Positions 3,582 to 52,614 of a stretch of 64,000 nucleotides of DNA are shown here, one piece after another (positions within the stretch are counted from its first letter, which is position 1; every line of letters begins with the position of its first letter). The position numbers were made by a program, and so were the translations under genes. The notes beneath the pieces were generated by a model. That model worked only from the letters and a program-made list of their open reading frames with translations. It ran no database searches and had not been told where the DNA came from. The DNA is from a bacterium (GTDB lineage Bacteria; Zhuqueibacterota; QNDG01; CAYUAG01): contig JAWODZ010000126.1 of assembly GCA_046483025.1 (NCBI GenBank), positions 11,981 to 75,980 of the forward strand, given 5' to 3'.

Positions 3582-3596
3582 TAAATAGAGGTAATT

Positions 3597-4577
3597 ATGG
3601 GAAAAGAAACAAACAGTAATAGTAAGGATCTGAAAAAAAGAAAATCAACTCAAGAGAAAAAGGGATCTGTCAGAGAGTTTTTTGAATCACTTGTTTTTGC
3701 AGTAGTAGTAGCTTTGGTAATACGGGCACTGGTAATCTATCCTTTTCGTATTCCTACTGGTTCTATGGAGGATACACTTTTGATAGGAGATTTTTTACTG
3801 GCTAACAAGTTTGTCTATGGGATTCGTTCTCCGGACTGGATTGGAATACCAACTACCAGAGTTGGTTTCAGTATTCCATTTTTTCGCACTCCGGGATTCA
3901 GAAAACCGAAAAAAGGAGATGTGGTTATTTTTAAATATCCTCAGGATTCCCAGTTGAATTATATCAAAAGATGCGTGGGGGTGAGTGGGGATACTATTTT
4001 GATCCGTGACAAAGTTTTATATATTAATGGGGAAAAATTCCCGAATCCTCCTGAATCCAAATTTATCAATTATCAAACTGCTCCGGAAGATTTTATTCAA
4101 CCGGAAATTTTTCCTCCGGGAGCAGGTAATATTGATTTTTATGGCCCGGTGCGGGTTCCGGCAAAAGGGGATACTTTTCATTTTACCCAGTCAAATAAAG
4201 ATGAATGGTTTGAACGGTTTCAGCTTATGGTGTACGAAGGGAATAAGCTGGAGATCTCCTATAAAGGGGAATCAATAGCGTTAACTGTTGACAATCAAAA
4301 TCGATGGCAGAGAGCAATTCAGGTTTATCCGCCGGAATCATTTCTTGTAAATGGTACACCTGTTAATCAAGTGGTATATGAAGTGGAAAATCGTCACTAT
4401 TTTATGATGGGCGACAACCGGGACAACAGTCTTGACAGCAGATACTGGGGATTTCTTCCGGAAAGATATGTGGTGGGAGAAGGGTTGATAATATATTTTT
4501 CCTGGAACAAAGATGTTCCTCTGTACAGGATTTTTAAAAAAATTCGCTGGGGCAGGATCCTGAAACTCATCAGATAA
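3597..4577 (+). CDS. lepB: signal peptidase I (S26 family)
   Basis: N-terminal TM helix, catalytic Ser box GSMEDTL, and conserved box E region (MMGDNRDNSLDSRYWGF). Classic lepA-lepB synteny. Confidence 0.9.
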   Translation: MGKETNSNSKDLKKRKSTQEKKGSVREFFESLVFAVVVALVIRALVIYPFRIPTGSMEDTLLIGDFLLANKFVYGIRSPDWIGIPTTRVGFSIPFFRTPGFRKPKKGDVVIFKYPQDSQLNYIKRCVGVSGDTILIRDKVLYINGEKFPNPPESKFINYQTAPEDFIQPEIFPPGAGNIDFYGPVRVPAKGDTFHFTQSNKDEWFERFQLMVYEGNKLEISYKGESIALTVDNQNRWQRAIQVYPPESFLVNGTPVNQVVYEVENRHYFMMGDNRDNSLDSRYWGFLPERYVVGEGLIIYFSWNKDVPLYRIFKKIRWGRILKLIR

Positions 4578-4584
4578 AGGGATA

Positions 4585-5688
4585 ATGGAAGGAATATACC
4601 TACACTTTCCTTTTTGTCAGTCTAAATGCAGCTACTGTGATTTTTATTCCATTGTTTATTCCGAAAAACTGGTTTCAGAATATGTTCAGGCTCTGAAAAC
4701 CGAGATTCGGCTTTATTCTGATTTTTTCACCAGCAATAAAACAATCGATACAATTTATTTGGGGGGAGGTACTCCTTCCCTTCTTAAAATCGGACAGATT
4801 AAAGATATATTACATCATTTGTATAATGTCTTCAACATCAGTGAATCTTCGGAAATAACCATTGAGATGAATCCCGGAAATACCTCCCTGAAAGATCTCT
4901 CTGCTTACAGAGAGATTGGTATTAACCGGATCAGTATCGGGGCTCAGTCTTTTAAAAAGAATGAGCTGGCCGTAATGAAACGGATCCACAATCCTGATGA
5001 AATTAAAACCATATGTTCCTCTGTCCGGAAAGCCGGTTTAGAGAATTTCAGTCTTGATCTTATTTTTGGTCTTCCCGGACAGAATCTTCAGGACTGGAAA
5101 TACACCTTATCTGAATCTTTTTCTTTACAGCCAAAACATATTTCAGCGTACAGTTTAACCTGGAGTTCTAAAACGCCTCTGGGCAGAAAGATAATCAAAG
5201 GAGATATCCCGGCTCCTCAGGAGGAAATGGTAGCTGAAATGTTTCTGTATGCAGATGATATGTTAGTAGAAAGCGGATATGAGCATTATGAAATTTCCAA
5301 TTATGCCTTGCCGGGATACCGGTGCAGACATAATGAGGGATACTGGAATGGACAATCCTATCTGGGGCTGGGCCCGTCTGCTCATTCTTTCAGAGAAAAT
5401 AAGCGGTTCAGGAATGTTTCTGATGTCAGAGAGTATATTTCACGACTTTCCCAATCTTTTCTCCCGGTTGAGGAAGAAGAAGTGCTGTCTTCAGAACAGA
5501 TACGAACAGAACGTATTGCAGTGGGGCTGCGGAGAAAAGAGGGGATTGACATCAGGAAAAACAATATCGATCTGTCTGAAGTTGAGGGTTTTGTGCAGAA
5601 GGGATTGGTAGTTCATGATGAAAATGTACTTACGTTAACTCCCCAGGGGATGCTTTTTGCGGATGAGGTGGCGTTGCGGGTGGTGTGA
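4585..5688 (+). CDS. hemW: radical SAM heme chaperone HemW / oxygen-independent coproporphyrinogen-III oxidase-like protein
   Basis: CxxxCxxC radical SAM motif CQSKCSYCDF, GGGTPS motif and a HemN_C-like C-terminus. Ends with a TGA stop at 5686-5688. Confidence 0.85.
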   Translation: MEGIYLHFPFCQSKCSYCDFYSIVYSEKLVSEYVQALKTEIRLYSDFFTSNKTIDTIYLGGGTPSLLKIGQIKDILHHLYNVFNISESSEITIEMNPGNTSLKDLSAYREIGINRISIGAQSFKKNELAVMKRIHNPDEIKTICSSVRKAGLENFSLDLIFGLPGQNLQDWKYTLSESFSLQPKHISAYSLTWSSKTPLGRKIIKGDIPAPQEEMVAEMFLYADDMLVESGYEHYEISNYALPGYRCRHNEGYWNGQSYLGLGPSAHSFRENKRFRNVSDVREYISRLSQSFLPVEEEEVLSSEQIRTERIAVGLRRKEGIDIRKNNIDLSEVEGFVQKGLVVHDENVLTLTPQGMLFADEVALRVV

Positions 5689-30205: not shown

Positions 30206-31720
30206 TTATTTTTGTCTTTCTTTGACCATCTCGGTTATGGTCCTGAAATCAAGTTTTCCGCTTCCCATTTTGGGTAGTTCAGGAAAAACCATGAATATTT
30301 TTGGAATTGCTATCTTAGGTAATTCTTTACCTAATTTTTTAAGTATTTCTTTTCTGTTAATTTTCTCAGACACAGCAGCAATTAATTGAGCTCCTTTGGT
30401 GGGATGCGGGACTTCTACTACGCAACAATCAATATGATCCGGAAGTGCGGTATTCAGTATACTTTCCGTATTAACCAGAGAAACCATTTCACCTCCAATT
30501 TTCACAAATCGTTTTAGTCTCCCTTTATGCCAGAGATACCCATCCTCATCCAGCATACCCATATCACCGGTATCATACCATCCGTCTTTGATACGAAGAG
30601 AGGTCTCTTCAATATCATCGAAATAACCTTTCATAACATTGGGGCCTTTAACCAGAATTTTTCCTTCTTTATTTGGCGGTAATTCAGTACCACTTTCAAT
30701 ATCCACTATTTTAACGTTTTGATCCGGAAAAACTTTTCCAATACTACCGGCTCGGTTATGTTCCAGAGTATTTACTGAAATCACCGGACTTGTTTCAGTG
30801 GTTCCATACCCCTCCAGTAATAACTTATTATGTTTTTCTTTATACCCTTTTCGGAGTCTGTCCGGAGTTTTATCAGCACCAGCAACTAAAATTCGGAGAG
30901 AATCAAAATCTCCGGGTCGTGATTCTCTTAAATACCCTGCAAAAAAGACCGGAGTGGCAGCGATCATGACTGGTTTTTCTTCTTTTATTATTTTGGGGAT
31001 AGTTTTGAAATCAAGTGGATTGGCATAGGTTATAGCAGTTGAACCTAAGAGAAGCGGAAGCCAGAAATTTACCATATGCCCGAAAACATGAAAGAGAGGG
31101 AGAATACAGAGAATACTGTCTTCAGGGGTTAATTTAAAAATTTCGATTGCAGTCAGTGCATTTGAAGCTAAATTTTTATGGGTTAACTGAACAGCTTTGG
31201 GCTCTTTTTCGCTGCCGCTGGTGAAAAGAATAACAGCATTATAATCTTCAGTCAATTTTGCAGTTGATTTACAGATTTTTTTTACAGATAATTTAGAACG
31301 AAATAAAGCTTTTATTTTGTCAAATTTTGTAATACTCTCCATTATATCTTCGATATATATCATTCCCTCAATTTTTGGACATTTAATTTTTTCCAGAAGA
31401 GCCTTGGAGGTAATGATTTTTTTAAATCCACATTTATCCTGAGCATATACTGCATTTTTTTCCGCACCAGTAGAATAGTTGATCATAACCGGAACTTTTC
31501 CAGCCAGGAGTGCACCTAAAATTGCCAGAAATGATCCGGCGGAATTGGGGATCATTATTCCCAGGTAGCCCTTTTCGTATTTATTGAATTTTCTTGCCAA
31601 AAGAATTGCTGCAATTAAGGCTTTAGAGTAAGGAACTCTTTTATCAGTAGTACGGTCAATGATTGCTAATTTTTTTCCCATTTTTTTGGCAATTTTTACA
31701 AATTCATGATGTAATATCAT
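30206..31720 (-). CDS. AMP-dependent acyl-CoA synthetase/ligase
   Basis: 504 aa. AMP-binding motif TSGSEKEPKAV, EGYGTTE and the C-terminal GKLDFR lysine motif. Confidence 0.85.
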   Translation of the reverse strand: MILHHEFVKIAKKMGKKLAIIDRTTDKRVPYSKALIAAILLARKFNKYEKGYLGIMIPNSAGSFLAILGALLAGKVPVMINYSTGAEKNAVYAQDKCGFKKIITSKALLEKIKCPKIEGMIYIEDIMESITKFDKIKALFRSKLSVKKICKSTAKLTEDYNAVILFTSGSEKEPKAVQLTHKNLASNALTAIEIFKLTPEDSILCILPLFHVFGHMVNFWLPLLLGSTAITYANPLDFKTIPKIIKEEKPVMIAATPVFFAGYLRESRPGDFDSLRILVAGADKTPDRLRKGYKEKHNKLLLEGYGTTETSPVISVNTLEHNRAGSIGKVFPDQNVKIVDIESGTELPPNKEGKILVKGPNVMKGYFDDIEETSLRIKDGWYDTGDMGMLDEDGYLWHKGRLKRFVKIGGEMVSLVNTESILNTALPDHIDCCVVEVPHPTKGAQLIAAVSEKINRKEILKKLGKELPKIAIPKIFMVFPELPKMGSGKLDFRTITEMVKERQK

Positions 31721-35299: not shown

Positions 35300-37012
35300 A
35301 TGGTAAAAAAAGATGACATTTCTATAGTGCTTTGTGGTCCAGCAGGTCAGGGCATAAAGACTGCTGAACAGGTAATGGTGTCAATTTTTCGAAAAGCAGG
35401 ATATAATGTTTTTGCCACCAAAGAATACATGTCCCGTATCAGAGGAGGCAGTAATTCCACCTCTATCCGAGTATCATCAAAACAAGTGAAATCTTTTGTA
35501 GATCGCATGGATATCTTGGTTCCTCTCGACCGGGAGGCCTTGGAACATATTGAATCCCGTATTACCCCGGAAACAATGGTCATCGGGGAAAAGGAAATTT
35601 TACTAAAAGAAGATAAAAAGATAGATTATCAGATCCATGATGTAGCTTTAACTGAATTGGCCGAAGAAGCAGGTGGTAAAATTTATTCCAACATGATAGT
35701 AGTGGGAATTATAGCTGGTTTACTAGATATTGATAGTTCCTTGGTTCATACTTTTGTAGAAGAAATCTTCAGTAATAAAGAAAAAGAGATTGTAAAAAAG
35801 AATATTAGTGCTATTGATAAGGGATATAACCTCAGTTCCATTTTAGCAGCAGATTCCATCATTGAAATCAAAACCAAAGATAAGAACCAGATCCAAAAGG
35901 AGTTTTTAGTTAATGGTGGCGAGGCGGTAAGTATGGGAGCAGTAGCCGGAGGCTGTAATTTCATTGCTTCCTATCCTATGACTCCTTCCACCTCGGTTTT
36001 GACCTTTCTTGCCCAACATGGGAAAAAGTTCACTATTATTGCAGAGCAGGCTGAAGATGAAATAGCAGCCATTAATATGGTATTGGGTGCCTGGTATGCA
36101 GGAGCGCGGGGTATGGTGACCACCTCCGGAGGAGGATTTGCTTTGATGACAGAAGGATTGAGTCTTTCCGCCATGCTGGAGTCACCCCTGGTGATTCACC
36201 TTGCCCAGAGGCCGGGTCCGGCAACCGGGCTTCCTACCCGTACGGAGCAGGGTGATCTCTTGTTTGCTTTGCACGCCGGTCATGGTGAATTTCCCCGCAT
36301 AATTTTTTCCCCCGGTACTTTAGAGGATGCTTTCTTTTTAACCCAGAAGGCTTTTAATCTGGCAGATAAATACCAGATTCCGGTATTCATTCTCACGGAT
36401 CAGTATTTTATTGATTCCTATTACAACATCCGGAAGTTTGATCTATCGAAAGTTAAAAACCAACACTTTATAGTTAAAACCGGTAACGACTACCAGAGGT
36501 ATGAGCTTACAGACAATGGGGTTTCTCCCCGGGGAATACCGGGATATGGCGATGGTCTGGTGGCAGTGGACAGTGATGAACATGACTATGAAGGACATAT
36601 TACGGAAGATTTAGAGATCCGTGCCAACATGGTGGAGAAACGGTTAAAGAAGATGAACAGTCTGGTCAAAGAAGCATTAGTTGCGGAAAGAATTGGTCCG
36701 GATAACAGTGATACTCTGGTGATCTGCTGGGGATCGACAGTTCATATAGTGAAAGAGGCCCTGGAAAACATTGATGCAGATAAGATTGCTGTACTGTATT
36801 TCAAACAGGTCTTTCCGCTTTCTCCTCAGACAGCAGATATTCTTAATAAGGCAAAAAAGCTGATTATGGTAGAAAACAATGCAACGGCTCAATTTGCCCA
36901 GCTTTTGAAACTGCACCTAAATATTGATATTTCGATTAAAGTTTTAAAATACAATGGTCTGTGCTTTTCAGTGGAAGAGGTGGAAAAAGAATTACAGAAG
37001 GTAATCAATTAG
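35300..37012 (+). CDS. korA: 2-oxoacid:ferredoxin oxidoreductase alpha subunit (KorA/OorA type)
   Basis: 570 aa. Fused gamma-alpha organisation typical of two-subunit OFORs. Confidence 0.85.
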
Positions 37013-37018
37013 GAGAAC

Positions 37019-37876
37019 ATGATGAGTAAAAATGTTTACGACATGAGCGATATTGATGTGGCCTGGTGTCCGGGATGTGGTAATTTTACTATCTGGAAAG
37101 TGTTAAGGGAAACACTTTCGGAGATGAGCATAAAACCCCAGGAAGTAGTGATTGTATCCGGTATTGGTCAGGCAGCTAAGATGCCTCATTATTTACGCTG
37201 CAATGTATTTAACGGCTTGCACGGCAGAGCTTTACCTCCGGCTGTTGGTATAAAGTCAGTTAATCCTGAACTTACCGTAATTGCAGAAAGCGGAGACGGA
37301 GATATGTATGGTGAAGGAGGTAATCATTTTATGCACACCATCAGAAGAAATCCCAATATTACCAATCTTGTGCATAACAATATGGTTTACGGCTTGACCA
37401 AAGGCCAGGCTTCTCCCACCAGCCAGTCGGGATTTGTGACCCCGATACAGGTTGACGGTGTTACTCTGAAGCCTTTTAATCCGCTTGTGGTGGCAATTGC
37501 CCTGGATGCATCTTTTGTAGCCCGAACCAGCACCGTGGATACCGAGAAATTCAAGATGATCCTGAAAGAGGCAATAGAGCATCCCGGATATGCCCTAATT
37601 GATATTTTTCAACCCTGTGTTTCCTTTAACAAAGTCAATACCTACAAATGGTTCAAGGAAAACACCTATTATCTGGAAGAAAAGTATGATCCGAGGAACA
37701 AGGTTGAAGCCTTTACCCGGGCTTCGGAAACAGAAAAATTTCCTTTGGGAATTCTCTATAAAAATACTGATAAAAAGAGCTTTGAGCAAAGTCTGACAGT
37801 ATATCAGAAAGATAAAAGTCCTGTTATAAACAGATCCTTTAACCTGGAAAAGTTAGAGGAATTTATGAATAAGTAG
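37019..37876 (+). CDS. korB: 2-oxoacid:ferredoxin oxidoreductase beta subunit (TPP-binding)
   Basis: CPGCGNF motif at the N-terminus, TPP-binding GDG..Y region. An alternative ATG at 37022 has better SD spacing. Confidence 0.85.
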
Positions 37877-38313: not shown

Positions 38314-38709
38314 ATGAAAAATTTAGGTGAACATATTCAGCAAGCAGATTGGAAAACAGAAAAACATGTACCAGTCATTGAATGTTCGGATAAGGTGAAA
38401 GCGGAAGAAGTATTCGAGGTAAAAGTAGGATTGGGTAAGGAAGTGGCACATCCCAATACTACTGAGCATCATATTCGCTGGATCAGTCTTTATTTTTATC
38501 CGGAAGGTGATAAGTTTCCTTATGAAGTCGGTCATTTTGAATTCAATTCTCATGGAGAAGCTGTAAAAGGGGCTAATGAAGGACCGGTTTATACCCACCA
38601 TCAGGTTGGAGTCAATATGAAAGTTACCAAATCCGGGACTTTGCATGCTCTGGCTTTATGTAATATTCACGGACTCTGGGAAAACAGTAAAGATATTGAG
38701 ATTGGTTAA
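38314..38709 (+). CDS. sor: superoxide reductase (neelaredoxin/desulfoferrodoxin centre II type, 1Fe-SOR)
   Basis: EKHVPV motif with the E-K pair, His ligands, and CNxHGxW (CNIHGLW). Confidence 0.85.
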   Translation: MKNLGEHIQQADWKTEKHVPVIECSDKVKAEEVFEVKVGLGKEVAHPNTTEHHIRWISLYFYPEGDKFPYEVGHFEFNSHGEAVKGANEGPVYTHHQVGVNMKVTKSGTLHALALCNIHGLWENSKDIEIG

Positions 38710-41067: not shown

Positions 41068-42234
41068 ATGGCAACAGATCCTATTTGCGGTATGAAAGTA
41101 GATGAAAAGCATGGATTAAAACTCACTCATGAAGGTAAAACCTACTATTTCTGCAGCCAGCATTGTATGGAAAAATTTATTGAAGAAAACCAGATAACCG
41201 GAGTTCAATGTACTGAATGCGGTCCGGAAGCAAAGCAGCCTTTTTACCGCAATAAGCTGTTTATTGTTGTTTCCGCATTAGCAGTACTGTCGTTATTGTC
41301 TTTTTGGATTCCTTTTCTACAAGCCTTCCGCAGAGAATTATTCGACTATTTCCGAATGATCTGGTGGGCAATTCTGCTGGGGCTGGTTCTTGGAGGTGTG
41401 ATCGATTATTTTATTCCCAGAGAGTATGTCTCCCATGTACTTGCCCGGCCCTCCAAACGAACCATTGTTTATTCCGTATTTGTGGGATTTCTCATGAGTG
41501 CCTGTTCCCACGGAATACTGGCCCTTGCCATTCAGCTTTATAAAAAGGGAGCTTCGGTGCCGGCAGTGGTGGCCTTTCTCTTGGCCAGTCCCTGGGCAAA
41601 TATGACTCTGACTATTATGCTTATTGGTCTTTTCGGACTCAAAGCTCTCTTCATTATCCTCTCTGCCATTGTAGTCGCAATTATTACCGGACTGATATTT
41701 CAGGTTCTGGAAAAGGCAAAGCGGGTGGAAACCAATCCTCATTCAATTCCTTTTGATGAAAAATTTTCCATTGTGCAGGACATTAAAAAAAGAGTAAGAC
41801 AAACCAAGCTAACCTCTTCTACAGTGGGAGAAGCTTTCAAAGGGATTTTTCAGGGGATAGTCAGCCTGAGCAATATGGTTCTGTGGTGGATTCTGATTGG
41901 TATGGGGCTGGCGAGTTTGGCCGGAGCCTATGTTCCCAGTTCTTTTTTTGTGAACTATATGGGCCCTACCATTGCGGGACTTCTGATTACTCTGGCTTTT
42001 GCTACTATTATTGAAATATGTTCCGAAGGCTCGGCTCCCATGGCTTTCGAGATTTTCAAACAAACTGCCGCCTTTGGCAACAGTTTTGTGTTTCTTATGG
42101 CTGGTGTGGTTACTGATTACACCGAGATCGGACTGTTATGGCATAATGTAGGGAAGAAAACCGCAATTATGCTTCCAGTGATCACAGTTCCTCAGGTGAT
42201 CTTACTCGGTATGCTGGCTAACTGGCTGTTTTAG
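41068..42234 (+). CDS. YHS/TRASH metal-binding domain fused to a DUF318-type permease
   Basis: N-terminal DPICGMKVDEK...YYFCSQHCMEKF (YHS), then a second Cys cluster CTECGPE, then about 8 TM helices with an EICSEGSAP motif. Confidence 0.7.
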   Translation: MATDPICGMKVDEKHGLKLTHEGKTYYFCSQHCMEKFIEENQITGVQCTECGPEAKQPFYRNKLFIVVSALAVLSLLSFWIPFLQAFRRELFDYFRMIWWAILLGLVLGGVIDYFIPREYVSHVLARPSKRTIVYSVFVGFLMSACSHGILALAIQLYKKGASVPAVVAFLLASPWANMTLTIMLIGLFGLKALFIILSAIVVAIITGLIFQVLEKAKRVETNPHSIPFDEKFSIVQDIKKRVRQTKLTSSTVGEAFKGIFQGIVSLSNMVLWWILIGMGLASLAGAYVPSSFFVNYMGPTIAGLLITLAFATIIEICSEGSAPMAFEIFKQTAAFGNSFVFLMAGVVTDYTEIGLLWHNVGKKTAIMLPVITVPQVILLGMLANWLF

Positions 42235-42393: not shown

Positions 42394-42819
42394 ATGAAAG
42401 AAATTGGGATAATTGTGGATGTAAAAAAAGATAAGGGGATTGTGCGGCTGAGTTCGAAAAAGGAATGCAGGCATTGTTCTATGAATCAGCTTTGTCAAAG
42501 TACGGATCCCGGGAATAGAGTACTTGAAGTCGGACTTGGAGGGAAAAACTATCAGGTTGGAGATTGTGTGCAAATCATGACATCTGCTAAAAGCTATATG
42601 ACTGCTGCTGCATTGGTTTTCATGGTACCTCTGATTATTTCAATTGCAGGTTATGCTTTGGTGTATTCCATTACCAGGAGTCAGGGATGGGGAATTGCCG
42701 GTTTTACAGGATTCCTGGTTCTTTCCGGATTTTTTCTTTACTGGTTTGATAAAAGGTTTGGAAAGAAACGATTTTTCGAACCGCGTATCATTGGGAAAGT
42801 GAACAGGAGTCTGGGGTGA
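42394..42819 (+). CDS. RseC/MucC (SoxR-reducing system) family membrane protein
   Basis: N-terminal Cys cluster CRHCSMNQLC plus two C-terminal TM helices. 141 aa. Confidence 0.65.
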   Translation: MKEIGIIVDVKKDKGIVRLSSKKECRHCSMNQLCQSTDPGNRVLEVGLGGKNYQVGDCVQIMTSAKSYMTAAALVFMVPLIISIAGYALVYSITRSQGWGIAGFTGFLVLSGFFLYWFDKRFGKKRFFEPRIIGKVNRSLG

Positions 42820-42913: not shown

Positions 42914-44014
42914 ATGTTTATTGATCCTGTATGTGGTATGGAAATAAAGGATGATACATATTCCCTGTTGAGGAAAGGCAGACTATATCACTTTTGTTCT
43001 GAAGGATGTATGAAGCGGTTTAAAAAGTCAAAAGGAAAGTACATTAAACGAAAAGATTACGATCTTATTATTATTGGAGGAGGACCTGCTGGATTGACAG
43101 CAGCTGTCTATGCATCCATGCAACATCTGGATACTTTTCTCATCACCAAAGATATCGGTGGTCAGGCCATTGATAGTACAAAAGTTAAGAATTATATGGG
43201 ATTTGATTTTATTACAGGACCGGAACTGACCTCTAAATTTCAAAACCAATTTCTTCACACCCATTTCATCGATCATCGAATTGGTGAGGTCATTGCTATT
43301 GAGAAAAAAGAGAATCGGTTCTTGCTCCGAACCAGAAATGGAGAAAACTACATTGCCCTTTCCATTATTCTGACGACCGGCATGCAGAGAAAAAAACTTG
43401 GAGTACCTGGTGAGGAGAGACTTCAGCGCCAAGGGATTTTTTATAATCGGGTTCAAGATACCGGCCTCTTGGAGGATATTCCAGTAGCTGTGATCGGTGG
43501 TGGCAATACAGGCGTTCAGGCAGCATTGGACTTATTCAAGGTGGCTTCTAAAGTAACTCTGATTACTTTCGAAGATTTAACTGCCGACGCTCATTTGAAA
43601 AAAGATATTCAACGGTCACCTATACAGGTGTTCACACAGTATGCGGTTGTATCTATCGAAGGAGAAGATCGAGTCAAAGGAGTTGTTATTAGGCCTCGGT
43701 CAGGAGGCAAGACGATTTCTATTGAAGTGGGAGCAGTTTTTGTTGGGATTGGTTTAATGCCCAATACTTCACTAGTATCCAAACTTCTAAAAAGAAACAA
43801 ATTAGGAGAGGTCGTCATCTCAAAGGATTGTTGGACTTCTGTTCCTGGAATTTTTGCAGCTGGCGATGTTACGGATGTTCATGATAAAAGAATCGTTATC
43901 GCTTCGGGAGAGGGTGCAAAGGCAGCACTTGCTGCCCATCGTTATTTGAAAGAATTGAAGAGGAGTAATTCAAATTTTAATAAAGGAAAATTGGAGGATG
44001 TTGATTATGAATAA
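42914..44014 (+). CDS. YHS domain fused to a thioredoxin-reductase-like FAD/NAD(P) flavoprotein lacking the CxxC redox disulfide
   Basis: N-terminal [23 protein letters not shown]. FAD motif [12 protein letters not shown]. The region aligning to Trx[13 protein letters not shown] reads [13 protein letters not shown], with no Cys. GGGNTG second dinucleotide fold. GD motif AAGDVTD. Confidence 0.75.
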   Translation: [366 protein letters not shown]

Positions 44015-46094
44015 ACCTCCGGATTCAAGAAATAAGGATTACCAACAACATGATGAGAAGAATATGGGGCGTAAGAGGCATAAAGGTCAAAAGATACATG
44101 AATCGCATGACCAGCAGGTACACTCTAATCATAACAGGCATCATGATCACCATGCCCACATGGTGGCTGATTTTCGCAAACGGTTCTGGATTTCCCTGGG
44201 AGCAACCATCCCTATTTTGATCTTGTCGCCCATGATTCAGGGTTTTTTGGGTTTTACACAGGCGCTTGATTTTCCGGGGGATGTGTATGTATTATGGACT
44301 CTTTCCTCGTTTGTTTACTTTTACGGCGGCTGGCCCTTTCTCAAAGGACTTTTTAATGAACTGCAAAAGAAACAGCCCGGAATGATGACCTTGATTGCGG
44401 TTGCTGTTACTACAGCTTATGGTTACAGCAGCATAGTTGTTTTCGGTTTGAGCGGAAAGGTTTTTTTCTGGGAATTAGCCACGCTTATCGATATCATGCT
44501 TTTGGGGCACTGGATTGAAATGAAGTCGGTCATGGGTGCTTCCCGCGCCCTGGAAGAGATTGCCAAACTCATGCCTTCCGACGCCCACAAAGTCATGGAG
44601 GACGGAAGTACCGAAGACGTTCCCATCGAAGAGCTCCAGCCCGGGGACAAGGTTCTGATAAAACCGGGAGAGAAAGTTCCGGTCGACGGAGAGGTGGTGG
44701 AAGGCGAGAGCTCGGTGAATGAGGCCATGTTGACCGGAGAATCCAGGCCGGTGGAAAAACAAACCGGGTCCAGAGTGATCGGTGGTTCCCTTAATGGTGA
44801 AGGCGCAATCACTACAGAAGTACAAAAAACAGGTAAGGATTCTTTTTTGTCCCAGATGATCGATCTGGTGGAACAGGCTCAGAAAAGCAAATCCAGAAGT
44901 CAGGATCTGGCCAATCGTGCTGCTTTATGGCTTACTATCATTGCCCTTACAGTGGGAGTGATCACTTTGGCAGTATGGCTGGTTATCCTGGAAAGGGACT
45001 TTTCTTTTGCACTGGAAAGGACGGTGACAGTTATGGTGATCACCTGTCCTCATGCCCTGGGACTTGCAGTACCCTTGGTTGTTGCTGTATCCACCGCACT
45101 TTCCGCCAAGAACGGCCTTCTTATACGGGATCGGGCTTCTTTTGAGAGAGGACGTAACATCCAGGCAATCATCTTTGACAAAACCGGTACCCTGACCAAG
45201 GGTGAATTCGGTGTAACTGATACAATTTCATTTTCTGATGGAATGGATGAGAAAAAATTACTTGAATATGCTGCTGCAGTGGAAGCACATTCAGAACATC
45301 CTATAGCAAAAGGAATTGCTGCTTCAGTTGAAAAACCACCTGGTGTCAAGGATTTCAAGGCTATACCCGGAAAAGGTGCCCAGGGTCTGGTTGAGGGAAA
45401 GCAGGTCAAAGTTGTAAGTCCTGGTTTTCTCAGAGAAAATAATATGTCCAGGCAAGATGAGAGGATCGACACATTCAATTCCCAGGCGAAAACCGTGGTT
45501 TTTGTGATAATTGATGGAGATCTCAAAGGGGCTGTTGCACTGGCGGATATTATCAGGGAGGAATCCAAAGAAGCTATCTCCAGACTCAAGGGAATGGGAA
45601 TAAAGTGCATGATGCTCACTGGTGACAACAATCTGGTCGCCAAGTGGGTTGCAGAGGAGATAGGTCTGGATGAATATTTTGCTGAAGTTTTGCCCCAGGA
45701 TAAAGCTGAAAAAGTTAAGGAGGTTCAGTCACGGGGGTTGATTGTGGCAATGACCGGAGACGGTGTCAATGATGCTCCAGCCCTTGCCCAGGCCGATGTG
45801 GGCATTGCTATCGGCGCCGGGACGGATGTTGCAGTCCAAACAGCTGATATTATACTGGTTCACAGCAATCCCCTGGATGCTGTGGCCATTTTGGATCTTT
45901 CCCGGGCTACTTACCGGAAGATGGTACAGAATCTGGGATGGGCAACCGGTTACAATGCTTTTGCCATCCCTTTAGCTGCCGGAATTCTATTCAAATACGG
46001 TATACTTTTGAGTCCTGCAGCAGGTGCTATTTTAATGTCATTGAGTACAGTAATTGTGGCCATCAATGCAAGATTTTTAAAGATTAAGCATTGA
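43998..46094 (+). CDS. copB: heavy-metal P1B-type ATPase, CopB-like (P1B-3, CPH motif, His-rich N-terminus)
   Basis: His-rich N-terminus HKGQKIHESHDQQVHSNHNRHHDHHAHM. TM6 CPH (ITCPHALGL), not CPC. DKTGTLT phosphorylation site, GDGVNDAP hinge. Confidence 0.85.
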   Translation: MLIMNKPPDSRNKDYQQHDEKNMGRKRHKGQKIHESHDQQVHSNHNRHHDHHAHMVADFRKRFWISLGATIPILILSPMIQGFLGFTQALDFPGDVYVLWTLSSFVYFYGGWPFLKGLFNELQKKQPGMMTLIAVAVTTAYGYSSIVVFGLSGKVFFWELATLIDIMLLGHWIEMKSVMGASRALEEIAKLMPSDAHKVMEDGSTEDVPIEELQPGDKVLIKPGEKVPVDGEVVEGESSVNEAMLTGESRPVEKQTGSRVIGGSLNGEGAITTEVQKTGKDSFLSQMIDLVEQAQKSKSRSQDLANRAALWLTIIALTVGVITLAVWLVILERDFSFALERTVTVMVITCPHALGLAVPLVVAVSTALSAKNGLLIRDRASFERGRNIQAIIFDKTGTLTKGEFGVTDTISFSDGMDEKKLLEYAAAVEAHSEHPIAKGIAASVEKPPGVKDFKAIPGKGAQGLVEGKQVKVVSPGFLRENNMSRQDERIDTFNSQAKTVVFVIIDGDLKGAVALADIIREESKEAISRLKGMGIKCMMLTGDNNLVAKWVAEEIGLDEYFAEVLPQDKAEKVKEVQSRGLIVAMTGDGVNDAPALAQADVGIAIGAGTDVAVQTADIILVHSNPLDAVAILDLSRATYRKMVQNLGWATGYNAFAIPLAAGILFKYGILLSPAAGAILMSLSTVIVAINARFLKIKH

Positions 46095-46143: not shown

Positions 46144-46860
46144 ATGGTAATGAACGTAAAATTGGTTATTTTGATTTTTGGAATCTTAATATTTAATCTA
46201 CAGTTTGCTCATACTCAACATATTGAAGAAGAGCATGAAGATCATTTTCTGCATCCATTTCTGGCTCATATGGCACTCCCGGACAGGCCCGGTGAAATTA
46301 GTGTCAGAGTGTCTCCGTTTCAAGAACGTTTGGGTGTGGAGACGATTCAAGACATTGGTGTCCATATTGAAGCAGGAATTTTACCAAGACTGGGCCTTCA
46401 TGTCAGGAATGATGCGATAAAAGAAGGTCCTTATACGGAAATGATGATCATGTACGCTCTTATCCAAAATACTTCACTGAGTAGAGGTATCAGTCTATTT
46501 GGTCAGTTAAGTATACCGACAGGCCCGATTGAGTCCAATCGGAACAGGACATTGTTCGGATTAGCAGCCAGGGAAACCTTGAAAAAATTCGTTATCATCA
46601 ATACAAATGTTCATATTGATGTCAAAGAGGAGATGGCAGATATTGGAAGTTCTTTCGTATTTCGGCTATCGGAAAAATTATATCCTATCTTTGAAGTACA
46701 TGGAGAAATAGGAGAAGAAGAAACACATGCATCCGGCTTGTTTGCTTTAAAATTCAGGGTTAAACAACATACTGGTCTGGGATTTGGGTTCCAATTTCCC
46801 TTCAGTGGACATAAAGAATATGATACCCAATTGCTGGCCACTTTCGATTTGACTTTTTAA
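46144..46860 (+). CDS. secreted beta-strand-rich protein with His-rich N-terminus, putative outer-membrane barrel
   Basis: Signal peptide. HIEEEHEDHFLHPFLAHM. Alternating hydrophobic pattern. C-terminal ...ATFDLTF. Confidence 0.5.
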   Translation: MVMNVKLVILIFGILIFNLQFAHTQHIEEEHEDHFLHPFLAHMALPDRPGEISVRVSPFQERLGVETIQDIGVHIEAGILPRLGLHVRNDAIKEGPYTEMMIMYALIQNTSLSRGISLFGQLSIPTGPIESNRNRTLFGLAARETLKKFVIINTNVHIDVKEEMADIGSSFVFRLSEKLYPIFEVHGEIGEEETHASGLFALKFRVKQHTGLGFGFQFPFSGHKEYDTQLLATFDLTF

Positions 46861-47088: not shown

Positions 47089-47340
47089 TTGAAAGGAGTG
47101 AAAATTATGCATGACTGGGGAATGATGAACTGGGGCTGGGGCGGTATGATTGTTCAATTGCTTTTCTGGATAGTTATTATTGTTGCTATTATCTGGGCAA
47201 TCAGGCATTTTACCGGACCTGGTCGAAGTGATGGATCTGCTTCCGGCAGTGAATCGGCTCTGGATGTACTGAAAAAACGTTACGCCAGCGGAGAGATCGA
47301 CAAACAAGAATTTGAAGAAAAGAAAAGGGATATTTTATGA
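47089..47340 (+). CDS. SHOCT-domain small membrane protein (copy 2)
   Basis: W/G-rich N-terminus, one TM, ALDVLKKRYASGEIDKQEFEEKKRDIL. An alternative start at 47107 is possible. Confidence 0.7.
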   Translation: MKGVKIMHDWGMMNWGWGGMIVQLLFWIVIIVAIIWAIRHFTGPGRSDGSASGSESALDVLKKRYASGEIDKQEFEEKKRDIL

Positions 47341-47732
47341 AAAAAACTTCATATGCATTCACCAAAACAGTAAATAGAGATTTTGACCAAACCATTCAGA
47401 AACTTACGGAAGAATTGAAAAAGGAGGGTTTTGGTATTCTGACTGAGATTGATGTTCAGGCTACTCTTAAGAAAAAACTGGATGTTGATTTCAGGCCTTA
47501 CAAGATTCTGGGTGCTTGTAATCCTTCCTTTGCCTATAAAGCCTTACAGGCGGAAGAACAGATCGCATTAATGCTGCCCTGTAATGTTATTGTGTATGTG
47601 AATGAAGAGAAAGAAACCGTAGTCGCAGCTATTGATCCGGAGGCCTCAATGACGGCAATTGATAATCCTGAATTACAGGGAATCAATAAAGAAGTTCAGA
47701 CCAAGCTCAGATCAGTGATTGAGCGATGTTGA
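47337..47732 (+). CDS. DUF302 domain protein
   Basis: 131 aa. GFGILTEIDVQATLKKKLDV...YKILGACNP is the DUF302 core. Confidence 0.7.
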   Translation: MKKTSYAFTKTVNRDFDQTIQKLTEELKKEGFGILTEIDVQATLKKKLDVDFRPYKILGACNPSFAYKALQAEEQIALMLPCNVIVYVNEEKETVVAAIDPEASMTAIDNPELQGINKEVQTKLRSVIERC

Positions 47733-47779: not shown

Positions 47780-48016
47780 ATGCACGGATGGGAGTTTATG
47801 CACTGGGGCTGGTTTGGTTTTATTGTGCAGATTATTTTCTGGGTAGCAATCATACTGCTTATAGTATGGGTGGCAAAGAAAGTCACAGAGTCAGGTTCCG
47901 GAGATCGATCTTCTTCTGCGGGAGAATCAGCCCTGGACATTTTGAAAAAAAGATATGCCAAGGGAGAGATTGACAAAGATGAGTATGAAAAAAAGAAAAA
48001 GGACTTGACTGCATGA
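47780..48016 (+). CDS. SHOCT-domain small membrane protein (copy 3)
   Basis: MHGWEFMHWGW.. TM, then ALDILKKRYAKGEIDKDEYEKKKKDL. Confidence 0.7.
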   Translation: MHGWEFMHWGWFGFIVQIIFWVAIILLIVWVAKKVTESGSGDRSSSAGESALDILKKRYAKGEIDKDEYEKKKKDLTA

Positions 48017-48274: not shown

Positions 48275-48781
48275 ATGAAAAAACAATTATTCATTTTATT
48301 GGTAAGTATGCTGGTACTGGCTTTGTTTACATTGCCGGTTTTTTCTCAGCAGCATCATAAAAAAGAGAAACAGGAAAAAATGGAAATGATGCAGCATGGA
48401 AAAATGATGGGAGAACAGAAAGGTATGATGGATATGCATCAGATGAATGTTATGATGGATTCTACCATGAAGAGATGCAAAATGACAAATGAGTACATGC
48501 AGAAAATGAAAGACAGTCAAATGATGGGTGGTAAAATGGGTATGAAATCCATGATGGGAATGAATCAGAACCTGGAGGGAATGGCACAACAGATGAAGAT
48601 GATGACTGAAAACATGGAAACAATGATGAACAGCGAAGAGATGATGTCTGATAAAGATTTTATGGAACATATGAATAAAATGCATGAAATGATGTCACAG
48701 ACTTCCAAAAACATGGACCAGATGGCAAAGATGATGCATAGTATGATGGAGCAGACTGACAAACAAAAAGAGATGGAATAG
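48275..48781 (+). CDS. secreted methionine-rich protein (about 30% Met; MxM/MxxM repeats), putative Cu(I)-binding periplasmic protein
   Basis: Signal peptide, then MEMMQHGKMMGEQKGMMDMHQMNVMMDSTM...MMSQTSKNMDQMAKMMHSMMEQ. SD ggagag upstream. Confidence 0.7.
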   Translation: MKKQLFILLVSMLVLALFTLPVFSQQHHKKEKQEKMEMMQHGKMMGEQKGMMDMHQMNVMMDSTMKRCKMTNEYMQKMKDSQMMGGKMGMKSMMGMNQNLEGMAQQMKMMTENMETMMNSEEMMSDKDFMEHMNKMHEMMSQTSKNMDQMAKMMHSMMEQTDKQKEME

Positions 48782-48983: not shown

Positions 48984-49616
48984 ATGAATATACATACCAG
49001 AAAAATAAAAAGACGCTACGGCCGTATTGCCGGCATATATGATGTGATGGAAAAACCCATGGAGTTCATATTTGCCACATGGCGTCGGGAATTGATGAAA
49101 GAAGTATCCGGAGAAGTGCTGGAAGTAGGAGTGGGTACAGGTAAAAATTTACAATACTATCCCCAGGGTATGAACGTGACAGCCATAGATTTCAGTTCCC
49201 GCATGATTGACAAAGCTAGGCAAAAAGTTCGAGAACTTGAACGGCACTTCGATTTACGGGTGATGGACGTTCAGGATATGAATTTCCCGGATAACACTTT
49301 CGATACCGTGGTGACTTCCTGTGTGTTCTGTTCGGTACCGGATCCGGTAAAAGGACTGAAAGAGATCCGCCGGGTGTGTAAATCAGGAGGAAAAGTAGTG
49401 ATGCTGGAGCATGTACGCAGTCAGAGACCAATATTAGGCCCTTTAATGGATATTTTGAATCCTGTACCAGTTTTAATGTATGGAGCCAATATCAATCGAA
49501 ATACCATTCAGAATCTGAGAATGGCCGGTTTTCGGAATATAGAAGTCAGGAATTTATGGTTGGATATTGTAAAACTGATCGTTGTTACACATGTAAAACA
49601 ATCAGTAGGTAAATAG
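48984..49616 (+). CDS. class I SAM-dependent methyltransferase (Methyltransf_11/UbiE-like)
   Basis: Motif I VLEVGVGTGKNL, motif post-I IDFS..M. Confidence 0.75.
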   Translation: MNIHTRKIKRRYGRIAGIYDVMEKPMEFIFATWRRELMKEVSGEVLEVGVGTGKNLQYYPQGMNVTAIDFSSRMIDKARQKVRELERHFDLRVMDVQDMNFPDNTFDTVVTSCVFCSVPDPVKGLKEIRRVCKSGGKVVMLEHVRSQRPILGPLMDILNPVPVLMYGANINRNTIQNLRMAGFRNIEVRNLWLDIVKLIVVTHVKQSVGK

Positions 49617-49676: not shown

Positions 49677-51926
49677 ATGAAGAAAATTTTAGGGATTCTA
49701 CTGGTTTTGTTATTATTTAATACAGTTTTTGCTCATAATGAATTGACTCCCACAGTCAATGGGGATTCTATTATTTATGAGCTTACCATTCATTATAAAA
49801 CCGTCAATTTTACCGGAAAAGAAACCCAGGCCATAGCGGTGAACAATTCCATTCCGGCTCCCGTGCTCCGGTTTCAGGAAGGTAAAATTGCTGTAATACA
49901 AGTGACAAACGAAATGTCGGAAGAGGCGTCCATTCACTGGCATGGACTGATTCTGCCTAATTTTCAGGATGGAGTACCCTATCTTACTACACCTCCCATA
50001 CGTGCCGGTAAAACCTTTACTTACAGTTTTCCGCTCAAACAGTCAGGCACTTACTGGTATCACTCCCATACCGGGCTGCAGGAACAAAAAGGATTATACG
50101 GCGGGATTATAATTGAACCCAGAGAAAGTACAATTCAGTACGATCGGGATCTGGTCCTGGTGCTTTCGGACTGGACGGATCAGGATCCCCGCAAGGTTCT
50201 TAAAAACCTGAAACGTCATAATGAGTGGTACGGAGTAAAGATCGGAAATGCTCCCTCACTCTGGGATGCAGTAAAAAATAACACCTTGATACCCCAGTTT
50301 AAATTATGGGCTGATCAGATGCCGGGCATGCATATATCTGATATTTATTATGATGCTTTTTTGATCAACGGTAAGAAGGAACAGGTATACGAAGATTTTT
50401 TACCTGGTGAAGAGGTCAGGTTACAGGTAATAAATGCTGCTGCCTCCAGTTATTTCTGGCTCACCTGGGCCGGAGGTGATTTGGAGATTATCTCAGCAGA
50501 TGGCCTGAATGTACAGCCGGTTAAAGCTGAGAAAGTTTTGATCGGGATAGCGGAAACTTATGATTTTATCATTACAATTGCGGAAGGTAAAAGCCTTGAA
50601 TTCAGGGCCACTGCTCAGGATGTTACCGGAAGTTCATCTGTTTTTATGGGGAGAGGAAAAAGAACAGAAGCTCCCGGGATCCCTTTTCCCAATTATCAAA
50701 AGCTGGGAAGAAAGATGGCAGAGCTGCACGGGGGAGGAGACAGTATGGAGCTTAAAGGTGATGAAAAAGGTGATTTAAAAAAGCATGATAATGTCATGAA
50801 AATGTCCAGTGATCATTCTACAGATAAAATGCAGAAAAATACGGACTCAGCCATGCAGCATACCATGCAGGAAGAACATGGTATGAAAGTAACCGATCCC
50901 ATGATTATGTGGAACGCGGGGTATTCTAATACAATATTAAAATCAGTGGAACCGACAAAATTTTCCCAGGATTCCCCGGTAAGACATCTGGTTTTAAATC
51001 TTACAGGTGATATGTGGCGATATAACTGGAATATCAACGGAAAACCTCTCTCAAAAGCGGATAAGATCAGGATAAACAAAGGTGAAGTAGTCCAGATTAC
51101 TCTGAACAATACTACTATGATGCATCATCCCATGCATTTACACGGTCATTTTTTCAGAGTGCTGAATGGTAATGGAGATCATTCTCCCCTGAAACATACA
51201 GTGGACATACCCCCAATGAGCAGAACAACCATTGAATTTGCTGCCTCAGAAGATAAAGACTGGTTCTTTCACTGTCATATTCTGTATCATATGTCAGCGG
51301 GTATGGCCCGGATTTTCAGTTATAATCACAGCATTAGAGATAAAAGACTTGATAAATATCCACTCAAAAATTTCTTAAAACATGACAGTGAATGGTTTTT
51401 CTGGGGTGATATCAGCGGATTAAGTCATAAGGGGGTACTTGAACTGGTTTTGTCCAACACCTATAATCAAATTAATCTAAAAGCAGAATATGGGTGGCAA
51501 CAACAGATATATGAAGCCAAATTAGACTATGAACGATTTATCCAAAATTATTTCAGAATATACACCGGTCTGAAAGCTGAAACCGAAGAAGCTGATAACT
51601 GGGATGATCCGCATACATCCGGCAGAGTCGGTATTCGGTATTTACTTTTGTATATTTTAGATACGGATATAAGCATTGATCATCAACTGAGACCGGAAAT
51701 AGCCTTGGAAGCCCATCTGCCTCTTACCAAACGCCTGATATCGGCAGGGCATCTGGAATGGAAAAATGATTTTGGCTGGATCAATGAATTACCTGAAGGT
51801 GTGAACCAGGAAGGGGAGCTGGTCTGGAATGTGAATCTTGAATATATTTTAGGAAAGAATTTTTTGCTTTCAGCCGGATATGATAATCGTTTTGAGTGGG
51901 GAGGGGGACTTAAAATATTATTTTAA
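49677..51926 (+). CDS. multicopper oxidase (CopA/CueO-like) with Met-rich insert and an about 210-aa C-terminal beta-rich extension ending in Phe
   Basis: Copper motifs HWHGL, WYHSH, HPMHLHGH and HCHILYHMSAGM. Met-rich segment MKMSSDHSTDKMQKNTDSAMQHTMQEEHGMKVTDPMIMW. Extension from about residue 540 ends ...GGGLKILF. Confidence 0.8.
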   Translation: MKKILGILLVLLLFNTVFAHNELTPTVNGDSIIYELTIHYKTVNFTGKETQAIAVNNSIPAPVLRFQEGKIAVIQVTNEMSEEASIHWHGLILPNFQDGVPYLTTPPIRAGKTFTYSFPLKQSGTYWYHSHTGLQEQKGLYGGIIIEPRESTIQYDRDLVLVLSDWTDQDPRKVLKNLKRHNEWYGVKIGNAPSLWDAVKNNTLIPQFKLWADQMPGMHISDIYYDAFLINGKKEQVYEDFLPGEEVRLQVINAAASSYFWLTWAGGDLEIISADGLNVQPVKAEKVLIGIAETYDFIITIAEGKSLEFRATAQDVTGSSSVFMGRGKRTEAPGIPFPNYQKLGRKMAELHGGGDSMELKGDEKGDLKKHDNVMKMSSDHSTDKMQKNTDSAMQHTMQEEHGMKVTDPMIMWNAGYSNTILKSVEPTKFSQDSPVRHLVLNLTGDMWRYNWNINGKPLSKADKIRINKGEVVQITLNNTTMMHHPMHLHGHFFRVLNGNGDHSPLKHTVDIPPMSRTTIEFAASEDKDWFFHCHILYHMSAGMARIFSYNHSIRDKRLDKYPLKNFLKHDSEWFFWGDISGLSHKGVLELVLSNTYNQINLKAEYGWQQQIYEAKLDYERFIQNYFRIYTGLKAETEEADNWDDPHTSGRVGIRYLLLYILDTDISIDHQLRPEIALEAHLPLTKRLISAGHLEWKNDFGWINELPEGVNQEGELVWNVNLEYILGKNFLLSAGYDNRFEWGGGLKILF

Positions 51927-51975: not shown

Positions 51976-52614
51976 ATGAAGTTAACATTTCTGGGAACTC
52001 GTGGGTACATTGAGGCTCGAAGCCGCCATCACCGGATGCACAGTTCCCTGATGGTCAGCTATCAGGGTAAAAAAGTAATGATCGACTGCGGTGAGGACTG
52101 GCTGGGAGCAGTATATGATCTTCATCCCCGGGCTATTGTGCTCACGCATGCGCATCCGGATCATGCCGGGGGACTGAAGGGGGAAGCTCCCTGTCCGGTG
52201 TATGCTATCCGAGTATCCTGGGAAAAGTTAAAGGATTACGGAATCGAGAAGCGAGTAACTATACCGGAAAGAAAGGCGGTGACAATTGCCGGGATTACTT
52301 TCCAGGCTTTTCCCGTGGATCATTCCACCCGGGCTCCTGCAGTAGGGTACCGTATCAGCGCCGGAAAGGTGACGATTTTTTATGCCCCGGATCTGGTCTG
52401 GATCCATGACCGTACAGCAGCTCTTTCCGGGGTTAAGGTATACATCGGAGACGCGGCTACTATCAGTAAATCCCTGGTGCGCAAGATGGAGGGGAATTTA
52501 ATCGGGCATACTTTTCTTCGTACTCAACTGACCTGGTGTCAGAAAGAAGGAGTTCCCCGGGCCATATTCACTCATCTTGGCGCTGAGATTGTGGAGGGTG
52601 ACGAGCGTTCTTAA
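51976..52614 (+). CDS. MBL-fold metallo-hydrolase (truncated by an in-frame TAA; ancestral frame continues to 52698)
   Basis: HxHxDH motif LTHAHPDHAGG. After the TAA at 52612-52614 the same frame encodes KARIKKLAEERGVQVQIAWDGREEILR, which looks like the usual A.DG..I.L MBL C-terminus. Confidence 0.7.
   Translation: MKLTFLGTRGYIEARSRHHRMHSSLMVSYQGKKVMIDCGEDWLGAVYDLHPRAIVLTHAHPDHAGGLKGEAPCPVYAIRVSWEKLKDYGIEKRVTIPERKAVTIAGITFQAFPVDHSTRAPAVGYRISAGKVTIFYAPDLVWIHDRTAALSGVKVYIGDAATISKSLVRKMEGNLIGHTFLRTQLTWCQKEGVPRAIFTHLGAEIVEGDERS

Follow-up and report, generated by a model that had tools for sequence, protein, structure and literature searches.

Forty years after their discovery, it is still unresolved how the outer-membrane proteins PcoB and CopB work. 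In the pco system of Escherichia coli and the cop system of Pseudomonas syringae they form a 12-stranded outer-membrane barrel (PcoB structure 7PGE) alongside a periplasmic multicopper oxidase (MCO), PcoA or CopA. Besides the two components and their partnership, a fused PcoA-PcoB is also known already, from a single sentence on five Legionella species in Hernandez-Montes et al. 2012 (PMC3548706). Here we describe a gene at positions 49677-51926 of a 64,000-nucleotide stretch of bacterial DNA (contig JAWODZ010000126.1, positions 11,981 to 75,980), hereafter referred to as the window. The product of this gene is an MCO and a remote CopB/PcoB-related 12-stranded barrel in one chain. It belongs to a large family, a fused and diverged variant of CopAB/PcoAB, whose members have been sequenced publicly but remain unannotated. 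In the full-text literature, which was incompletely covered, we found no description of this Bacteroidota/Balneolaceae fusion family, its structure, its distribution or its switch from the twin-arginine (Tat) to the general secretory (Sec) export signal. This study shows by computation how the protein is divided into domains, which copper ligands it has, what fold the barrel adopts and what is most closely related to it, that the fusion is conserved and that the export signal is of the Sec type. An identical protein of 749 aa is recorded solely on a 3.3-kb contig of a metagenome run, and a second large protein of the window has no such entry. Coordinates of all features are collected in Table 1.

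The N-terminal part of the protein is readily recognized. Its three MCO Pfam domains (PF07732, PF00394 and PF07731) score far over their cutoffs, and all four copper-ligand motifs (HxHG, HxH, HxxHxH and HCHxxxHxxxxM) were found, as HWHG, WYHSH, HPMHLH and HCHILYHMSAGM. The latter two, at residues 484-489 and 532-543, represent type 1 (T1) and trinuclear-site ligands. The best NCBIfam model by far is TIGR01480 (copper_res_A), which scores 399.6 bits over residues 16-546. Because this is less than the curated trusted cutoff of 478.95 bits, the oxidase would be, as far as its sequence can tell, a diverged relative of the CopA/PcoA subfamily TIGR01480 and not an orthodox member. Between domains 2 and 3 lies a stretch (residues 341-420) with 10 Met and 5 His, while Met makes up 2.9% of the whole protein. 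CueO/PcoA-type cuprous oxidases have a Met-rich Cu(I)-binding region at the same place as the insert at residues 341-412, and cuprous oxidase activity would be expected of this enzyme as well. The four copper motifs and the Met-rich insert had been listed in an initial annotation made from the sequence alone, and all of them could be located by position and composition. The same annotation had the motifs finish around residue 540 with a further 210 residues behind them; the motifs are indeed there, although they end at residue 543 and are followed by about 206 residues, the last ones being ...GGGLKILF. The export signal is of the Sec type (MKKILGILLVLLLFNTVFA), whereas E. coli PcoA starts with MLLKTSRRTFLKG, a Tat signal. 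No twin-Arg motif is present in any of the 73 complete fusions introduced below.

We modeled the structure of the C-terminal tail with AlphaFold2 (AF2), using an alignment of 37 tail sequences (A2) that also underlies the statistics over 37 members given here. The model is of high confidence (predicted local distance difference test, pLDDT, 90.6; predicted template modeling score 0.82) and consists of two short helices followed by 12 consecutive β-strands that extend up to the final residue. The helices comprise 5 and 9 residues (tail residues 16-20 and 23-31, pLDDT ~70) and belong to the linker. An AF2 run with the single sequence (pLDDT 38.6, mostly helices) was unusable. The model bears out the initial proposal of a C-terminal outer-membrane β-barrel, for which an AlphaFold prediction had been suggested as a check, except that the barrel does not take up all 210 residues: the barrel proper comprises about 176 residues (574-749) and follows a linker of 24 residues. 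The opposing outcome named in that annotation, namely that the tail is a cupredoxin-like or PKD-like soluble domain, was not found. The closest structure in the whole PDB is PcoB/CopB, as agreed by two independent methods; Foldseek ranks PcoB first with an E-value of 2.9e-6, compared to 1.6e-4 for the runner-up.

The alternating hydrophobic periodicity that had drawn attention to the tail is real. Within the 12 predicted strands of the window tail only 1 of 58 lipid-facing residues is charged (they are mostly L, I, G, Y, A, F and W), whereas the lumen face, as defined by the strand dyad pattern rather than by a mapped pore, has 19 D/E and 9 K/R. Over the 37 members, the mean Kyte-Doolittle hydropathy is +1.46 for lipid-facing and -1.39 for lumen-facing positions. 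By the same dyad pattern, the net charge of the lumen averages -8.2 and is negative in 36 of 37 members; acidic lumen positions E613, D668, E694 and D736 are retained in 65-84% of them. The terminal residue is aromatic (F, Y or W) in 33 of the 37 sequences, and the β-signal of the window tail, ...GGGLKILF, has Gly, a hydrophobic residue and Phe at positions -5, -2 and 0, respectively. Both hallmarks of a barrel dependent on the β-barrel assembly machinery (BAM), namely an aromatic-ended C-terminal β-signal and a Sec signal peptide, are thereby present. If the N-terminus is taken as periplasmic, long loops at residues 636-645 (TEEADNWDDP) and 699-711 are on the outside and the periplasmic turns are 3-4 residues long, so that in the model the long outer loops and short periplasmic turns follow the canonical pattern of outer-membrane proteins. 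The barrel is predicted to reside in the outer membrane, and both of its ends would be periplasmic.

At the sequence level the relationship to CopB emerges mainly from comparisons that use the whole tail family. The window tail on its own scores 17.1 bits against Pfam CopB (PF05275, gathering cutoff 27), and its other sub-threshold matches are to a generic outer-membrane protein barrel family and to NCBIfam PorV. The domain search recommended for the tail in the initial annotation has returned CopB and outer-membrane barrel matches, though none above threshold. A sequence search of the PDB with the single tail gave nothing relevant, and one with the tail-family profile retrieved only de novo designed transmembrane barrels and not PcoB. 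Nevertheless, 8 of the 37 tails individually match Pfam CopB at E ≤ 0.01 (best 2.6e-5). Comparison of the tail family by hhalign with a broad CopB alignment, made of annotated plasmid genes from Cupriavidus, Sphingomonas, Novosphingobium, Salinimonas, Acinetobacter and enterobacteria, gave a probability of 96.1% (E = 3.5e-9, 113 columns), and that with the single E. coli PcoB gave 75%. Together with PcoB/CopB being the best structural match in the PDB, this agrees with the earlier idea of a CopA-CopB-like fusion, the homology being remote. The sequence comparisons suggest that the tail is a remote CopB relative beyond the present boundary of the Pfam family.

Next, we asked which proteins carry this domain. 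Searching 1.84 billion representative proteins exhaustively by HMMER with a two-sequence tail profile, we detected 115 representatives, 46 of them at E < 1e-10; word-index homologue searches gave one match with the tail and five with the family alignment. Full-length proteins in the HMMER set have 670-990 residues, a signal peptide and an HCH motif about 200 residues before the C-terminus, while the short matches are mostly fragments starting within the oxidase. In two proteins (P0087 and P0108) the domain stands free, with just a signal peptide and about 45 residues in front of it. Because these two carry it free-standing, the tail can be considered an autonomous module. Both were also looked at as possible split copB-like genes adjoining an oxidase; they lie in housekeeping contexts, which are uninformative.

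The fusion turned out to be widespread. A scan with a single tail motif over one genome per species (185,579 species) showed that at least 541 species genomes encode a relative of the tail. Locus-level counts given below rest on the best 80 of these 541 genomes, 73 loci of which hold complete fusions. Hosts among the best 80 belong to Balneolaceae, Flavobacteriaceae (Tenacibaculum, Gelidibacter, Aequorivita, Maribacter, Psychroflexus and other genera), Chitinophagales, Cytophagales, Saprospiraceae and Marinilabiliales/Bacteroidales, and the fusion hosts include many cultured type strains and finished chromosomes. In every complete locus the tail is the C-terminus of an open reading frame (ORF) of 729-888 aa with a signal peptide and MCO motifs; in other words, the barrel is always covalently joined to a CopA/PcoA-type oxidase in the complete loci examined. 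The question raised initially, whether orthologous MCOs carry the same tail, is thus answered positively in 73 of 73 cases. The geometry of the junction is also nearly constant. In 60 of the 73 complete fusions, 216 residues separate the HCH motif from the C-terminus, and the linker has 19-27 residues (median 24) in 35 fused family members. A separate canonical copB is absent from the vicinity of the fusion in all 80 loci. Overall, the fusion is not a rarity but the standard architecture in hundreds of Bacteroidota/Balneolaceae species. RefSeq lists such products as single proteins of 769-812 aa under the names 'multicopper oxidase domain-containing protein' or 'CopA family copper-resistance protein', leaving the barrel unnamed. 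The family includes WP_151080912.1 of Hymenobacter busanensis and WP_284688649.1 of Chondrinema litorale. No fusions of canonical CopB were seen among the sampled rows of a plasmid collection.

The closest relative of the window protein is encoded at locus L002 of an unclassified metagenome-assembled genome (86% identity in the tail), and the next closest loci are those of Balneolaceae. A metagenome counterpart with 50% tail identity (L001, positions 3156-5464) is broken solely by a run of N in the Met-rich region, and gene callers reported only a 340-aa C-terminal piece of it. Gaps in low-complexity Met-rich DNA may disguise such fusions as fragments in databases.

Taken together, the gene probably encodes the CopA/CopB (PcoA/PcoB) module for periplasmic copper resistance as a single chain. 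According to this proposal, the chain would leave the cytoplasm unfolded via Sec, BAM would insert the C-terminal 176 residues as a 12-stranded outer-membrane barrel with both ends in the periplasm, and the N-terminal 530-residue three-domain oxidase would fold and acquire copper in the periplasm. Export through Sec is compatible with an unfolded barrel bound for BAM, and the loss of the Tat signal would fit. By analogy with canonical barrel topology, the oxidase is most likely tethered at the periplasmic face of the outer membrane, where the near-constant linker of about 24 residues would keep it at the periplasmic mouth of the barrel. Cu(I) delivered to the periplasm by the neighboring P1B-type ATPase would be captured by the Met-rich insert and oxidized at the T1 site to Cu(II), which in turn would be handed to the lumen of the barrel, predicted to be acidic, and cross the outer membrane. 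PcoB is known to have an electronegative funnel (PMC9210255). In Caulobacter, the N-terminal region of PcoB stabilizes PcoA, and a direct docking there has been hypothesized (PMC12509749). For the two-gene systems, PcoA has been proposed to dock non-covalently on this region of PcoB, which is disordered and rich in His and Met; the covalent fusion would take the place of this contact and make a separate docking region unnecessary. In all this, the periplasmic orientation, the cuprous oxidase activity, the copper conduction and its direction are what we infer from the features described. It is also possible, though rather unlikely, that oxidation and passage of copper through the outer membrane are mechanically coupled, with the oxidase acting as a lid so that only Cu(II) made at the T1 site enters the channel. 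In a bolder variant of this idea, the barrel would give the oxidase access to extracellular substrates as a porin-MCO conduit.

Several observations weigh against the single-chain CopA/CopB proposal. The window tail is under the gathering threshold of Pfam CopB, a HMMER profile of canonical CopB retrieves none of the fused tails at E ≤ 1e-3, and hhalign against a low-diversity, Pseudomonas-dominated CopB alignment gave just 78%; it is for these reasons that we speak of remote homology. P0087 and P0108 are not beside copper genes but in housekeeping neighborhoods. Conservation is no higher at lumen positions than at lipid-facing ones (entropy 2.30 versus 2.27, p = 0.39), unlike what is reported for PcoB. 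The structural model spans the tail alone, the interface between oxidase and barrel and the placement of the linker relative to the lumen being outside it. Furthermore, MCOs require O2, and the window encodes anaerobe markers, namely subunits of pyruvate:ferredoxin oxidoreductase (PFOR) and desulfoferrodoxin (35300-37876 and 38314-38709, + strand). By their gene content, PFOR and desulfoferrodoxin point to an anaerobic or microaerophilic host, which is at odds with an O2-dependent MCO. Finally, even for PcoB it is contested which way copper moves through the barrel: import was proposed in a structural study (PMC9210255), and efflux is supported by genetic work in Caulobacter (PMC12509749).

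Some of these observations would suit a different explanation, in which the barrel conducts nothing and serves merely as a membrane anchor that keeps the oxidase on the inside of the outer membrane, for instance, near the entry of copper through porins. The lumen being no better conserved than the lipid-facing surface is what one would see for an anchor, and, because the free-standing relatives occur in non-copper contexts, the barrel fold need not be copper-specific. We nonetheless regard the anchor as unlikely: 36 of the 37 members retain a net negative lumen charge by the dyad pattern, several acidic positions recur in 65-84% of the sequences, the nearest relative in both structure and sequence is a copper-conducting barrel, and a lipoprotein anchor would be a far cheaper tether in Bacteroidota. 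The order of parts, an N-terminal passenger, a short helical linker and a C-terminal 12-stranded barrel, is shared with type Va autotransporters, in which case the barrel would export the oxidase to the cell surface and the linker helix would stay in the pore. Yet the Autotransporter family of Pfam (PF03797) is not matched by any of the 37 tails at E ≤ 0.01, and the structural match is much weaker than that of PcoB. Moreover, having just 19-27 residues and two short helices, the linker would hardly be long enough both to cross the barrel and to accommodate a domain of 60 kDa. The passenger, a globular copper enzyme of three domains, is not a β-helix, and free-standing barrel relatives exist without any passenger. 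We find surface export improbable on these grounds.

It is also conceivable that the protein is a fused porin-MCO redox module that works at or across the outer membrane on some other substrate to be oxidized, for instance, Fe(II), Mn(II) or phenolics. PcoA-type MCOs are able to oxidize Fe(II), and a PcoAB porin-MCO system has been hypothesized in iron oxidizers (PMC5566968); the order of parts resembles that of Cyc2, and the TIGR01480 score under the trusted cutoff indicates that the oxidase is not an orthodox CopA. However, the Met-rich insert is typical of cuprous oxidases, and the copper-specific neighborhood (P1B-ATPase, Met-rich, YHS and cupredoxin proteins) recurs in other genomes. In addition, a 530-residue MCO is too big for the interior of a 12-stranded barrel, unlike the Cyc2 cytochrome, and the hosts are mostly heterotrophic marine and soil Bacteroidota, which makes a module for other substrates very improbable. 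As canonical systems consist of two adjacent, often overlapping genes (PMC12509749), a long ORF might in principle arise from copA and copB by a sequencing or assembly error. The ORF, however, is uninterrupted in 73 complete loci of independent genomes, including finished chromosomes and type strains, the geometry of the junction is constant, and RefSeq has single proteins of 769-812 aa. Since the same architecture with constant geometry is found in all these loci, such an artefact can be practically excluded. The single-chain CopA/CopB module thus remains our preferred explanation.

Table 1. Features of the fusion gene and of its neighborhood in the window (positions are those of the window)
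Feature	Positions	Strand	Basis
YHS + ArsP-type permease	41068-42234	+	
RseC/MucC-like gene between both YHS fusions	42394-42819		
YHS + pyridine-nucleotide-disulfide oxidoreductase (thioredoxin-reductase-like)	42914-44014	+	
Copper P1B-type ATPase, His-rich N-terminus	43998-46094	+	Pfam E1-E2_ATPase + Hydrolase
238-aa ORF directly 3' of ATPase	46144-46860	+	Signal-peptide-like N-terminus, His/Glu-rich mature start, C-terminal Phe (...ATFDLTF)
Three paralogous mini-proteins, 67-83 aa	46881-47084, 47089-47340, 47780-48016	+	One transmembrane helix each, C-terminal SHOCT (Pfam for the 83-aa protein, blastp cross-matches for the other two)
DUF302 protein interleaved with SHOCT mini-proteins	47337-47732		
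Secreted 168-aa protein, 45 Met (27%), 7 His	48275-48781	+	
Class I S-adenosylmethionine (SAM) methyltransferase (UbiE/Methyltransf_11), immediately 5' of fusion	48984-49616	+	
MCO-barrel fusion gene, 749 aa, stop codon included	49677-51926	+	ORF list, ATG start
Sec-type signal peptide, residues 1-19, MKKILGILLVLLLFNTVFA cleaved before HNE, twin-arginine motif absent	49677-49733	+	Read from sequence; cleavage site inferred
MCO cupredoxin domain 1, residues 38-150, HWHG 87-90 and WYHSH 127-131	49788-50126	+	Pfam PF07732 Cu-oxidase_3, E 1.1e-44
MCO cupredoxin domain 2, residues 159-303	50151-50585	+	Pfam PF00394 Cu-oxidase, E 2.6e-15
Met/His-rich insert between domains 2 and 3, about residues 341-412	50697-50912	+	Composition
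MCO cupredoxin domain 3, residues 438-548, HPMHLH 484-489 and HCHILYHMSAGM 532-543	50988-51320	+	Pfam PF07731 Cu-oxidase_2, E 2.7e-36
Linker, residues 550-573, two short predicted helices	51324-51395	+	AF2 model of tail
Predicted 12-stranded CopB/PcoB-like outer-membrane β-barrel, residues 574-749, acidic lumen face, β-signal ...GGGLKILF	51396-51923	+	
Metallo-β-lactamase (MBL)-fold hydrolase, 50 nt 3' of fusion	51976-52614	+	Pfam Anti-Pycsar_Apyc1 PF23023 + Lactamase_B families

In the window, the fusion gene belongs to a copper island with the ATPase, a Met-rich protein, YHS proteins and a cupredoxin. On its 5' side are genes for the YHS-ArsP permease, the YHS-flavoprotein, the P1B-ATPase, three SHOCT proteins, the DUF302 protein, the Met-rich protein and the SAM methyltransferase, and on its 3' side those for the MBL-fold protein and the cupredoxin. 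Gene order at L002 is the same (ATPase, SHOCT, Met-rich protein, methyltransferase, fusion). The ATPase has 11 His within residues 1-60, a CPH motif at residue 350 in a transmembrane region and DKTGT at 394; this pattern would make it a CopB-type (P1B-3-like) ATPase rather than one of the CopA type with CxxC/CPC. It is the probable source of periplasmic Cu(I), and a homologous copper ATPase occurs within 8 kb of the fusion in 49 of the 80 loci. The start of the ATPase gene overlaps the preceding ORF by 17 nt. The Met-rich protein has no real family, the only matches being weak and sub-threshold (Pfam Dynactin_p22 and NCBIfam SecM_small), and its sole homologue found is that of L002 (55% identity). 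By analogy to PcoE or CusF, it is a candidate periplasmic Cu(I) sponge.

The accessory genes recur to a different extent. In 15-16 of the 80 genomes, SHOCT and DUF302 genes lie no more than 8 kb from the fusion, which suggests an accessory, as yet uncharacterized, role in copper handling. The methyltransferase gene has the same position in L002 (84% identity) and is near the fusion in Sunxiuqinia indica (locus L071, 60%), while the MBL-fold hydrolase has no homologue near the fusion in other genomes. The YHS-oxidoreductase has an unusual architecture and may be a metal-sensing or metal-reducing flavoprotein. The product of the ORF directly 3' of the ATPase could, from its sequence, also form a small barrel in the outer membrane; neither Pfam nor NCBIfam families match it, and the 80 loci contain no homologue. 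As a second member of the tail family it was rejected, being unrelated by hhalign. Long ORFs (at least 120 aa and not nested in a longer opposite-strand ORF) are nearly all on the + strand of the window, with a clear exception at 30206-31720 (-). A scan for promoters and terminators around the fusion, which did not cover Bacteroidota-type promoters, gave nothing above background.

The finding overturns nothing; rather, it brings comparative support to the open question of how PcoA and PcoB cooperate. Conserved covalent fusions are independent comparative evidence that oxidase and barrel act as one physical unit. The fusion also shows which ends come together: the oxidase contributes its C-terminus and the barrel its N-terminus, both presumably in the periplasm. 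Being a single protein, it would moreover be easier to study by structural and biochemical means than the two-protein system. The change from Tat to Sec that accompanies it bears on the periplasmic maturation of copper enzymes. If oxidation and copper passage were indeed coupled with the oxidase as a lid, the fixed 24-residue linker would set the docking geometry of PcoA on PcoB in two-gene systems and would help to settle how, and in which direction, an unenergized barrel aids copper resistance. There is also a gap in annotation: hundreds of RefSeq proteins are labeled as MCO only, since their 200-residue outer-membrane domain falls under the Pfam CopB threshold and goes unrecognized.

How does the fusion compare with other known systems? 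Cyc2 of iron oxidizers likewise has an N-terminal redox domain covalently joined to a C-terminal outer-membrane barrel (PMC5566968). However, the small monoheme domain of Cyc2 plugs a larger barrel and moves electrons across the membrane, whereas here the barrel is a narrow one of 12 strands, and the copper enzyme attached to it, with its 60 kDa, cannot serve as a plug. In type Va autotransporters, as in the fusion, a functional domain comes first and is followed by a short helical linker and a 12-stranded barrel at the C-terminus. They differ from the fusion by the lack of a family sequence match, by a structural match much weaker than that of PcoB, by the shortness of the linker here and by a passenger that is not a β-helix. 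The Legionella proteins also combine the oxidase and its outer-membrane partner in a single gene, which the authors took as evidence for interaction, although the fusion was mentioned without architecture, structure or distribution (PMC3548706). As they were found by an ortholog search with E. coli PcoB, the barrel in this gammaproteobacterium is presumably canonical. Compared with PcoA/PcoB, the fusion is one polypeptide with a Sec signal instead of a Tat signal. It is without the disordered His/Met-rich N-terminal region of PcoB, having the oxidase and a 24-residue linker in that place, and its own Met/His-rich stretch is located inside the MCO. The barrel is too diverged for Pfam PF05275 and for the HMMER CopB profile, and, unlike in the pco and cop operons, no copC, copD or copRS adjoin the gene. 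At the same time, the order of parts in the fusion is the gene order, oxidase then barrel; the three-domain MCO with its Met-rich region is about 34% identical to PcoA; and the barrel, with 12 strands, a terminal Phe and a lumen predicted to be acidic, is encoded in a copper-resistance neighborhood and is the counterpart of PcoB.

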